A model generated the notes under the pieces. That model was given only the letters and a program-made list of their open reading frames with translations, was not told where the DNA came from and ran no database searches. 64,000 nt of DNA from a bacterium (lineage in GTDB: Bacteria > Chlamydiota > Chlamydiia > Chlamydiales > SM23-39), in contig JAJXYX010000097.1 in the NCBI GenBank assembly GCA_021780355.1, positions 1,594-65,593 of the forward strand. The letters run 5' to 3'. Shown here piece after piece: positions 8,923 to 10,496 of the stretch. Every line of letters starts with the position of its first letter. Position 1 is the stretch's first letter. The translations under genes were made by a program, and so were the position numbers.

Positions 8923-10344
8923 ATGCAAAATATTTCTTCCTTGTCGACTAGTCCGTCCGCTTCCTGTTGGGATAGGACGGCTCGTTGGATTCATGAACAT
9001 CCTACAGTTAGCAAAGTGATCAGGGTAGCCGGTCTTGTATTGGGTCTCGGCTTGCTATTGACTCTTCCCTTTGCGGCGCCGCTTTGCGGCATCGGATTCG
9101 CTGTTCTTTCGGCATCATCGGGGACGTTATTAGCTTTAGTTTCTGGGTTAGCTTTAGCCTTTTTGGATCTTTTGATTCCTCCCCACCATCAAATGAGCGT
9201 TCATATGTATACGCCAGCTGAGTGCGAAGGGGGAGTTCTTTATTATGAAGGAGATGTGCCGATTCTCTCTTTAACCTCTTCCGATCCGTTTATAGCAGGT
9301 AAGGCTCAAGGAGTTCTTTGCGGCGAGGCGATTTCCCTTCTAGTGAAGCGTTTTGATTTTGTGCTGCATACTTTAGCCAGACAGCCTCGAGCTCACGAAT
9401 TGCCGAATACGCTGGCTAGAGTAAAGGAGCTTATTCCCGAACGTTATCTTTTGGAAATGCAAGGGCTCGTAGATGGCTATAATGAGTGGGCAAAGCTGCA
9501 TGCAGATTCGCTTTCCTATGGGAAATTAACGCTTGAGGATGCCTTGCTTTTTCATCTGATGCCGGATTCGCGCCATTTTACGCCGGCAGTTTTAGAGGGA
9601 TTGCATAGATCTTCTTTACATCCAGCCGTCGCGTGTTCTTCTCTTGTCGAAGAAAATGAATTAGGGCAGCTTGTTTTTGCACGAAATATGGATTGGCCTT
9701 CTTTTGGGTTAGCCGGCGCTTATAGTTTGGTGATCCATCATCAACACACAGATACGATTGGCGTAAGCGTTCCTGGTTTTGTGGGACTTTTGACGGGAAT
9801 GAATCGTTTTGGGCTCTCTCTTGCTATGAACGTATGTTCTGGCGATACGAAAAAGATCGAGGGCATGCCAGCTGTGTTTTACAATCGCATGTGTCTAGAA
9901 ACGTTTTCATCTGTTGATCAAGTGGTTGAGTTTACTCAAGGGCCGCGCCCTATGGGACCTTACCATCTCACTGTTGCAGATGCAAACAAAGCCTGTTCGA
10001 TTCATTTTTTCCAATCTTCCAAAGATCCCTCGCAGCATGTGATCCGCTCTTGGAAGCTTGGACAGCCGCTTTCTACTTTTAACTATTGCTATGATGTCGA
10101 TAGAGTTGAAAATGATTTGCATCATAGCTTAGAGAGAAGTCAGGCAGTGAATCAATATTTTAATCGTCGGTTTGGCAGGCCGGTTGAACAGGCTCTCGCC
10201 CTTCCTTTTGTGGATAATTGGCTCACGACGCACCGTGTCGTCATGGAGCCTGAAAGCAAAAGGTTTCGAGTTGCGTTTGATAATGCATTTGCAGGAAGCG
10301 CACCTTTGCACGAAGTTCCCAGCCGCCATTTATACCGTTCGTGA
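8923..10344 (+). CDS. Inc-like N-terminus fused to a peptidase C45 / acyl-CoA:6-APA acyltransferase-type Ntn-hydrolase domain
   Basis: ATG 8923 is preferred over TTG 8866. Residues ~30-85 form a ~55-aa bilobed hydrophobic block (VIRVAGLVLGLGLLLTLPFAAPLCGIGFAVLSASSGTLLALVSGLALAFLDLLI). The C-terminal domain carries the C45/Ntn pattern: PFIAGKAQG, EMQGLVDG, candidate nucleophile in PAVACSSLV, ARNMDWP, PGFVGLLTGMNRFGLSLAMNV, GMPAVFYNR. The last 3-4 codons and the stop lie inside the repeat at 10331. Confidence 0.65.
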   Translation: MQNISSLSTSPSASCWDRTARWIHEHPTVSKVIRVAGLVLGLGLLLTLPFAAPLCGIGFAVLSASSGTLLALVSGLALAFLDLLIPPHHQMSVHMYTPAECEGGVLYYEGDVPILSLTSSDPFIAGKAQGVLCGEAISLLVKRFDFVLHTLARQPRAHELPNTLARVKELIPERYLLEMQGLVDGYNEWAKLHADSLSYGKLTLEDALLFHLMPDSRHFTPAVLEGLHRSSLHPAVACSSLVEENELGQLVFARNMDWPSFGLAGAYSLVIHHQHTDTIGVSVPGFVGLLTGMNRFGLSLAMNVCSGDTKKIEGMPAVFYNRMCLETFSSVDQVVEFTQGPRPMGPYHLTVADANKACSIHFFQSSKDPSQHVIRSWKLGQPLSTFNYCYDVDRVENDLHHSLERSQAVNQYFNRRFGRPVEQALALPFVDNWLTTHRVVMEPESKRFRVAFDNAFAGSAPLHEVPSRHLYRS

Positions 10345-10496
10345 CTCAATAATCGGCTATTGAACGGGTTCAAAGCGCCAAAAATCGAATGCGGCAAAGT
10401 GGGTTGTATTGCCTCATACTAGCCCACTTTGCCGTATTCGATTTTTGGCAGCGATCTCCCGTCCAATAGCCGATTCTTGAGTTGCGAACGGGTATA
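10331..10496. repeat. Family-1 palindromic element, full-length subtype-1 copy (166 bp)
   Basis: TATACCGTTCGTGACTCAATAATCGGCTATTGAACGGG-TTCAAAGCGCCAAAAATCGAATGCGGCAAAGTGGG-TTGTATTGCCTCATACTA-GCCCACTTTGCCGTATTCGATTTTTGGCAGCGATCTCCCG-TCCAATAGCCGATTCTTGAGTTGCGAACGGGTATA. It fills the whole spacer between two convergent genes and contributes a stop codon to the left-hand one. Confidence 0.9.

Follow-up and report, generated by a model that had tools for sequence, protein, structure and literature searches.

The 64-kb window analysed here (the whole stretch of 64,000 nucleotides, positions 1,594 to 65,593 of contig JAJXYX010000097.1, assembly GCA_021780355.1, Chlamydiales) carries a dispersed palindromic repeat with TATACC...GGTATA ends, which very probably represents a family of miniature transposable elements with inverted repeats (MITEs). 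A first-pass annotation, made from the sequence of the window alone, had listed six copies, and all six were found where it had placed them, together with a seventh, decayed end that was absent from its list (Table 1). The end motif TATACCNNNCGTGAYTCAA occurs eight times in the window, as compared with 0.05 occurrences expected from shuffles, and an nhmmer profile made from the two full-length copies matched, at E ≤ 1e-3, the six listed places alone. Gene positions were taken from the public calls for an identical contig (ENA ERZ27236866 k141_620252), according to which every window copy lies in a spacer or on a gene end, as had been noted before. The left end of the copy at 10331 supplies the last three codons and the TGA (10342-10344) of an AAT-family gene (8923-10344), and the stop codon of a convergent DUF2177 gene lies one base past the right end of the same copy; likewise, the solo end at 21372, read as its reverse complement, supplies the last residues and the TGA (21387-21389) of an M16-peptidase gene (21387-24347, minus strand). 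The copy at 16595 sits at the TA of a TTAA in the left arm of a GGGGCTTCGCCC-family palindrome (16555-16863), the half copy at 27247 adjoins a different 174-bp TA-ended palindrome (27077-27250) at the TA of its apical loop, and the chimera at 24392 has its junction at a CGA common to both parts (AAATCGA/TTCTTGAG). The window copies have no open reading frame (ORF) of their own, host ORFs merely running into their ends. Nor was a transposase found in the window, where the larger ORFs, scanned with Pfam, and the public gene table gave housekeeping genes; the annotation had said as much, and the gene of the putative cognate transposase lies 1.4 kb outside.

The invariant terminal TA had been proposed to be a target duplication of the IS630/Tc1 type, which could not be told from the repeat end within the window, and a comparison of empty and filled orthologous sites had been suggested. 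The AAT-family gene provides such a site. Its product ends in ...SRHLYRS and the closest relative, P0002 (71% identity), in ...SRHLFGLDDHHF; deletion of the 10331 element together with one TA gives the tail ...SRHLFTFEDHDV, which has the same length as that of P0002 and in which 5 of 8 residues are identical or similar (F, L/F, D/E, D, H). Alternative deletion models fail at this site, since removing everything yields ...SRHFYI and keeping TATA yields an unrelated tail (all tails are given up to the stop codon). P0002 is encoded on L071, from a CTOTU1218 metagenome-assembled genome (MAG; GCA_036736085.1), which has the same gene order and carries the family at other loci. The L071 site is empty and has a single TA, namely, CGCCACC-TA-TTTGGG, as compared with CGCCATT-TA[TACC...GGTA]TA-TTTACA in the window, with the duplicated TA at 10331-10332 and 10495-10496 and TACC...GGTA as the element proper. 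At the 16595 site, a 33-nt palindrome arm is regained under the TA model alone, and it then lines up gap-free with the right arm's reverse complement (...CTCCTTAAAACC versus ...CCCCTTAAAACC); the target was thus the TA of TTAA. Insertion flanks show a weak A-T-T/TA preference. The empty site, the restored C-terminus and the restored palindrome arm indicate that the terminal TA is a target-site duplication.

The copies expected elsewhere were found in large numbers. A scan with TATACCNNNCGTGAYTCAANAWTYGGC gave at least 63 stretches, and at least 20 species-representative MAGs carry the family, labelled Parachlamydiales, Rhabdochlamydiaceae, Chlamydiales, Chlamydiota and others, including three labelled Verrucomicrobiae or Caenarcanales; a metagenome scan added at least 120 stretches with the element, many of them from soil and peat. 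The 1.46 Mb of DNA that we fetched contain 423 ends and 152 adjacent plus/minus pairs, spanning 48-221 bp with a mode at 160-169 bp (98 pairs; 24 pairs measure 60-79 bp and eight 40-49 bp). Exact TATACC...GGTATA ends are present in 121 of 134 unique paired copies, and the end consensus TATACCGAACGTGATTCAAAAATTGGC reads TATACC-NNN-CGTGAYTCAA-RAWTYGGC, its triplet at positions 7-9 varying freely (GAA, CAA, TCT, GTT, GGT, GCT and others). The two arm subtypes of the annotation are as described in the window, but in these wider data they become two points of a continuum at this triplet. All copies have in common only the outer 27-32 nt, the putative transposase-binding end, and the interiors between these ends form at least nine clusters without relation to one another, nearly all of which yield elements of 160-175 bp. 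The window copies fall in clusters 1 and 2 (41 copies), with the architecture noted by the first-pass annotation, and shorter derivatives comprise mini-palindromes of 48-95 bp and solo ends.

Cluster 0 includes the most successful burst, of 49 copies in metagenome Ga0206832, with a median pairwise identity of 98.2%. Its copies (e.g. L130 214-377) have unequal ends, CGTGAT facing CATAAC, and a locally inverted segment in the interior, not a simple hairpin, which implies that perfect symmetry is not needed for amplification. The copies in L043 and L050, on different contigs of one MAG and with different flanks, are 100% identical. From the polymorphism between genomes and the identical or ~98% identical copies within genomes, transposition has thus been recent. 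Three copies of JAEHJW020001158.1 (L074 920-1084, L099 5216-5384, L188 3711-3875) are 94-96% identical to window subtypes 1 and 2, and the DNA that flanks them does not detectably resemble that of the window; the two lineages have been either strongly conserved or passed from one chlamydial genome to another. Retention at an orthologous site, considered for the copies at the same permease gene in L008, L023 and L059, was rejected, as these belong to different subfamilies and represent independent insertions.

An autonomous partner bounded by the same ends, which the annotation had proposed to look for, was found in the form of IS630-family insertion sequences of ~1.12 kb with TATACC...CGTGAYTCAA ends, each encoding one transposase of 346-358 aa with helix-turn-helix (HTH) and DDE_3 domains. 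The sole match in a scan of viral contigs was a 1120-bp element at L192 1898-3017 (TA/TACCGCACGTGATTCAAAAATTGGC ... GCCAACTTTTGAATTTACTTCGGTA/TA), with one ORF of 358 aa (Pfam: DDE_3, 2.2e-33; HTH_33, 7.6e-15; and HTH_29). More than 5,500 relatives of this transposase exist at E ≤ 1e-30, and those that bear a name among the matches listed are all IS630 family transposases, from Parachlamydiaceae, Simkania negevensis, Simkania sp. and Chlamydiales. Most of the listed relatives sit on contigs of 1.1-2 kb, and for this reason the partner is rarely seen on MAG contigs. The L192 contig itself (IMGVR_UViG_3300047478_000354, 39 kb) is classed as viral; the stretch read has genes for ParA-type and IstB/DnaA-like ATPases along with few long ORFs, and it may be a plasmid, a possible vehicle between chlamydiae.

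The window's own contig also encodes such a transposase, P0188 (347 aa, same domains as the L192 ORF), within an insertion sequence of 1117 bp with TA on both sides (L193 2941-4057); window base 1 being L193 5461, it lies 1,404-2,520 bp upstream of the window. Its left terminal base is mutated, giving TACACC instead of TATACC, and this copy may therefore be impaired. An identical transposase is encoded at two further sites (L194 and L195), which have TATACC and intact TATACCCTTCGTGAATCAAAA ends (left, TATACCCTTCGTGAATCAAAATTTTG; right, TATACCCAAGTAATCTCAAAAGTTGG). Complete transposase genes were detected by tblastn in three MITE-bearing metagenome loci, namely, L163, L168 and L190. The insertion sequence of L168 comes from Ga0206832, the metagenome of the 49-copy burst, and its left end agrees with the MITE consensus at 27 of 27 positions and is identical over 29 nt to the MITE ends of that burst; the left ends in L192, L196 and L197 agree at 22-26 of 27 positions. 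In L190, a MITE and an insertion sequence adjoin, with one TA common to both, and the copy of the cultured S. negevensis Z carries TATACTCAAGGTGACTCAAAAATTGG. The right end is a diverged left end (TATACCSAAGTAAnyTCAAAAGTTGG) that overlaps the stop codon of the transposase, and MITEs mostly have two left-end-type termini. TA is found on both sides in six of the seven insertion-sequence copies for which both junctions were read; at the left junction of L163, aaacc/TATACC, the sole TA is the one counted within the end.

Other routes to a partner gave no candidate. None of the plus/minus end pairs lying 0.4-4 kb apart in the 1.46 Mb enclosed a transposase (the right end of the real insertion sequences has diverged too far for the end profile to detect, so that this search passed them over), and the recurrent ORFs near the elements, clustered and with representatives scanned against Pfam, belong to host families only. 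L085 and L128 were rejected as partners: at L085 4482-5582 and L128 9259-9899, inverted MITE pairs bracket one host gene in a composite-transposon-like arrangement (a 248-aa protein of unknown function and a small gene, HTH-like by eye, respectively). L106 was also rejected; at ~273-2120 a group II intron (5' GTGCG; ORF 739-2010, a reverse transcriptase/maturase of 423 aa) interrupts a short MITE copy at its right end, and a mini-copy lies directly downstream. An origin of the MITE interiors from subterminal DNA of the insertion sequence was likewise discarded, as there is no clear homology past ~29 nt. The only feature that the MITE interiors share with this subterminal DNA is a TTGAAAG motif, which in the insertion sequence comes immediately after the left-end terminal repeat; the sharing may be due to chance.

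The annotation had also described a conserved apex over compensated stems in the two full-length copies. A hairpin of 64 pairs was predicted (RNAalifold) for 36 copies from many genomes, oriented by their internal asymmetry, and in these the description holds: all but one of the 36 copies have the apical TATT/AATA pairs, and 41 of the 64 pairs, along the whole arm, have changed on both sides. Paired cells amount to 96.6%, versus 77.4% in shuffles, and the covariation score is 0.536, whereas shuffles score 0.186 (none of 500 reaches 0.536) and slid partners 0.05-0.11. An asymmetric junction, in which a C-AAA(G/A)-C arm faces G-AAA(G/A) plus an extra base, occurs in 32 of 42 copies from three subfamilies; when folded, it leaves the hairpin with a fixed mismatch, C:C or G:G, and a bulge of 1 nt. 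An integration host factor (IHF) site or a d(GCGAAAGC) mini-hairpin at this junction was rejected by eye, as it fails across subfamilies. Single copies have ~10% of their arm positions unpaired.

As for what keeps the arms complementary, G:T and A:C mismatches number 57 and 45, respectively (p = 0.28), and copies are oriented 5 versus 11 with respect to flanking genes that are co-directional, with no bias. Spacers with copies are tandem (54), divergent (25) or convergent (20) in roughly chance proportions, and many copies lie 15 nt or less from a stop codon. Because no bias of strand, orientation or G:T wobble is seen, the constraint on the hairpin acts on DNA, not on RNA. Rfam 15 gave no match at the gathering threshold in the whole window, and the window copies contain no promoter- or terminator-like site and no terminator-like T-run. 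In 45 copies of the cluster-0 burst, none of 19 distinct substitutions in paired columns, a small sample, is compensated within the same copy. The data fit a complementarity that is inherited from propagating copies and decays after insertion, and we infer selection on the propagating copies. With regard to the causes that the annotation had offered, selection on an RNA structure found no support, and homogenisation of the arms in place is not seen in this young burst.

The elements are below ~300 bp and non-coding, share their terminal inverted repeats with an autonomous element, and show a target duplication, insertion polymorphism and many dispersed copies; the partner is an element of ~1.1-1.2 kb with a single transposase of HTH and DDE_3 domains (Pfam match), and the TA duplication was observed for the MITE. 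Taken together, these features make it very probable that the repeats are non-autonomous MITEs, as the annotation had suggested, moved in trans by a chlamydial DDE transposase of the IS630 family (Tc1/mariner superfamily). In such a mechanism, the N-terminal HTH domains would recognise positions 10-27, the conserved block of each end, and the DDE domain would cut the TA-flanked termini and, with a stagger of 2 bp, insert the element into a TA; the MITE would employ two left-end-type termini. It is tempting to speculate that TT[C/G]AAAG, ~40 nt in, could be a second transposase-binding site, comparable to the TTGAAAG of the insertion sequence, although this is only a guess. Foldability, or close apposition of the two ends, probably favours mobilisation. 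After insertion, internal deletion reduces copies to the mini-palindromes of 48-95 bp and the solo ends, and the effects on host genes, namely, replaced C-terminal codons, new stops and long 3' hairpins, are incidental.

Several observations weigh against this interpretation. A cut-and-paste DDE mechanism alone leaves unexplained the complementarity of the whole arm through dozens of compensated changes, the mismatch and bulge kept across subfamilies, and the length of ~165 bp reached from unrelated interiors. Furthermore, the insertion sequence resident in the genome of the window has a left end that agrees with the MITE subtypes at no more than 22 and 20 of 27 positions, and the copy beside the window has the mutated TACACC terminus; the window copies may thus owe their movement to a different variant, or may have been moved at an earlier time. 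Finally, the data are mostly metagenome assemblies, which break or mis-join at these palindromes. A rival view of the compensated stems alone, under which the element would still be an IS630-type MITE, is that arm complementarity is kept by mutation, through hairpin-templated template switching or mismatch correction of an extruded hairpin, so that a change in one arm is written into its partner. Bacteria are known to mutate by quasi-palindrome correction; in the elements, compensated changes are abundant, with transversions among them, and cover the whole arm, and both strands behave alike, as a DNA-level process predicts. However, indiscriminate homogenisation would erase the C:C/G:G mismatch and bulge, which persist, the unpaired positions of single copies argue in the same direction, and so does the lack of compensated substitutions in the burst, small as that sample is; we therefore regard this explanation as possible, though unlikely. 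A more doubtful proposal is that the folded form is itself functional, with the transposase or a host factor acting on a cruciform or a single-stranded hairpin, or with the hairpins co-opted by chlamydiae. It draws on the covarying 64-pair hairpin, on the retained mismatch, bulge and apical pairs, and on the constant length with unrelated interiors. If it were true, the mode of substrate recognition by the transposase would be one not established for the IS630 family, or, in the case of co-option, the hairpins could serve, for instance, as supercoiling, replication or transcript-processing signals.

That the repeats are in the first place structured RNAs (terminators, mRNA stabilisers, small RNAs or cis-regulators), whose spread is secondary, seems improbable to us. 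Strong covariation, the conserved apical loop and the proximity of many copies to stop codons would be expected of such RNAs, and the hairpins of Correia and ERIC elements do affect transcripts (PMC2229807, PMC10969869), but neither orientation nor spacer class departs from a near-random distribution, G:T wobbles are not favoured on either strand, and the negative results with Rfam and with terminator- and promoter-like sites point the same way, as do insertion polymorphism, the TA duplication and interiors that have only their ends in common. The palindromic architecture, the conserved extrahelical features and the 48-bp mini-palindromes recall repetitive extragenic palindromes (REPs) and their mosaic assemblies (BIMEs), spread by RAYT, an IS200/IS605-like tyrosine transposase, or else by an integron-type recombinase of single-stranded hairpins. 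This origin is highly improbable, given that a 2-bp TA duplication flanks the element, that the terminal repeats of 27-32 nt are identical to IS630-family insertion-sequence ends, that there are neither GTAG/CGTC heads nor cassette arrays, and that only IS630-type transposases, and no Y1 transposase, were found with Pfam among the larger window ORFs, the gene tables and the recurrent flanking families sampled. As for assembly, contigs of a 99.7%-identical MAG start or stop in apical loops (L002 4345-4512, L069 1-110 and 6209-6299, L070 1-30), and the L002 contig runs into unrelated sequence exactly at the end of an element; the synteny break of GCA_027457305.1 (L002) is thus better explained by assembly than by recombination, which was rejected. 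The elements thus break short-read assemblies and probably mis-join them. The same breaks at palindrome centres, and the partner switch in L002, would suit the idea that the repeats themselves are palindromic chimeras made by metagenome assembly, but the architecture of 160-169 bp, the ends and the TA flanks recur inside long contigs across many independent studies and assemblers, and one copy alters the C-terminus of a protein in the way that its orthologue explains, which leaves this idea with a negligible chance.

Among known systems, the IS630 insertion sequences of chlamydiae (S. negevensis Z and Parachlamydiaceae MAGs) are like the MITE in their TATAC[C/T]...GTGAYTCAAAAATTGG ends, TA flanks and host genomes; they differ in being 1.12 kb long and coding, with a diverged right end, whereas the MITE is ~165 bp long, non-coding and palindromic throughout. 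The norm for bacterial MITEs, namely, less than 200 bp, terminal inverted repeats with 5'-TA-3' termini, a duplication and a long stem-loop (PMC2229807, PMC3184786, PMC10969869), matches the chlamydial element in organisation, and its closest analogues are RUP with IS630-Spn1, and Correia. RUP, from Streptococcus pneumoniae, has ends that match IS630-Spn1, inserts at TA and has been proposed to be mobilised in trans, and like the chlamydial MITE it is intergenic, present in high copy and paired with an IS630-family element (PMC2229807). It differs in its size of 107 bp and its terminal repeat of 9 bp (PMC2229807), it belongs to another phylum and it has no sequence relationship; the chlamydial MITE, in turn, has a repeat of 27-32 nt and a covarying hairpin of 64 pairs. 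Correia/NEMIS elements of Neisseria have ends that start with TATA, a TA duplication, a repeat of ~24 bp and forms of ~155 and ~107 bp, and share with the chlamydial MITE an internally deleted short form, long stem-loops and insertion at or into gene ends (PMC2229807, PMC10969869). The reviews cited name no cognate transposase for Correia, whereas the chlamydial MITE has a candidate. Correia also differs in its documented IHF site, promoters and RNase III processing, whereas the chlamydial copies in the window are without a promoter-like site. The Correia terminal repeat reads TATAGCGGATTAAC..., and the chlamydial ends, TATACCNNNCGTGAYTCAA, are a different sequence, so that the likeness to Correia/NEMIS is one of organisation only. 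Stowaway in plants and MADE1 in humans have a TA duplication, conserved ends, a variable interior, hairpin potential and a transposase of the Tc1/mariner/IS630 superfamily; their organisation is like that of the chlamydial MITE, but their hosts are eukaryotic and there is no sequence relationship. REPs and BIMEs resemble the chlamydial MITE in being short, intergenic, palindromic and present in high copy, but REPs measure 20-40 bp, have GTAG/CGTC heads and no target duplication, and go with tyrosine transposases (PMC3733652, PMC3184786), which places the chlamydial element outside the REP/BIME-RAYT group. Chlamydial MITEs are not mentioned in the MITE reviews, the survey of 183,232 genomes or the papers on chlamydial insertion sequences that were searched, and the family described here is apparently a new MITE superfamily of a well-known kind, seemingly undescribed in chlamydiae.

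Other repeats are also present in the window. A second and more abundant family of intergenic palindromes is built from GGGGCTTCGCCCC and AAAGGAC...GTCCTTT modules, often with an A/T-rich centre (Table 1); positions 11692-11714 form a terminator-like hairpin with a T-run, and another copy hosts the MITE at 16595. The palindrome at 27077-27250 is 96% complementary over its 174 bp, has TATATAGTGCTTCCGGTTGAAAGGCACCC... ends and contains TTGAAAG, and it is probably a third TA-ended MITE-like family; an end of the TATATAGTGCTTCCGGTTGAAAGGCACCC type also adjoins a TATACC element in a CTOTU1218 MAG (L056 from ~266). A palindrome of 139 bp at 4222-4360 (67-nt arms, 94% complementary, TGTAAGCGTTCAGGC... 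ends), unrelated in sequence to the other families, lies just downstream of a gene for a 701-aa protein and 230 bp from the 4588 copy. At 50195-50405, two direct repeats of 93 nt, 87% identical and 118 bp apart, lie inside a large palindrome with arms at 50156-50204 and 50412-50460. Palindromic repeats are also found on both sides of the gene at 34801-36639 (minus strand), whose product of 612 aa has leucine-rich repeats and a C-terminal NEL (novel E3 ligase) domain (PF14496, 3.9e-24) and is a candidate IpaH/SspH-type effector.

Table 1. MITE copies, parts of the full-length copies and members of the second palindrome family in the 64-kb window.
Feature	Position	Strand	Remarks
Full-length MITE copy, subtype 1	10331-10496	.	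166 bp
Full-length MITE copy, subtype 2	16595-16763	.	169 bp, arms 97% complementary
Copy with internal deletion	4588-4659	.	72 bp; full left arm and 27-nt right end
Decayed solo end TATACCAAACAAAGCTGAAGAATCGGCTTATAGACAGG	~4767-4805	+	66% identity; absent from the first-pass annotation
Solo terminal repeat	21372-21405	+	
Chimera	24392-24472	.	81 bp; subtype-2 left arm and 22-nt subtype-1 right end
Half copy	27247-27329	-	Apical loop through right end; other half missing
Terminal inverted repeat, 10331 copy	10331-10362	+	~27-32 nt; mirror arm 10465-10496
Apical region, 16595 copy	16671-16689	+	TATT...AATA pairs, ~8-nt loop (ATTGTATTGATTTAATACTA)
Asymmetric junction, 16595 copy	16633-16643	+	C-AAAGC arm, here TTCAAAGCGC
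Arm facing the junction, 16595 copy	16713-16725		GGCAGCTTTCAAT; G-AAAGC and one extra base
Second palindrome family	11621-11712		
Second palindrome family	16421-16545		
Second palindrome family	16555-16863		
Second palindrome family	28807-28869		
Second palindrome family	32360-32492		
Second palindrome family	34571-34801		
Second palindrome family	43221-43349		
Second palindrome family	50156-50460		
Second palindrome family	54561-54701		

Environmental chlamydiae are studied as models for the way in which genomes shrink and genes are exchanged within amoebae, a context in which chlamydial insertion sequences have been discussed (PMC9723776, PMC13229535). The MITE family is abundant, with seven copies in 27 kb of the window and 49 copies in the burst of a single metagenome; its insertions rewrite the 3' ends of genes and nest in other repeats, and the breaks and mis-joins of assemblies at these elements bear on the quality of MAGs and on claims of synteny. 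To our knowledge, no partner is known for Correia and ERIC, and for this reason it cannot be answered with those elements whether the hairpin is needed for mobilisation of the Tc1/mariner type. A structured MITE together with an identifiable IS630 transposase provides a tractable system for this question.

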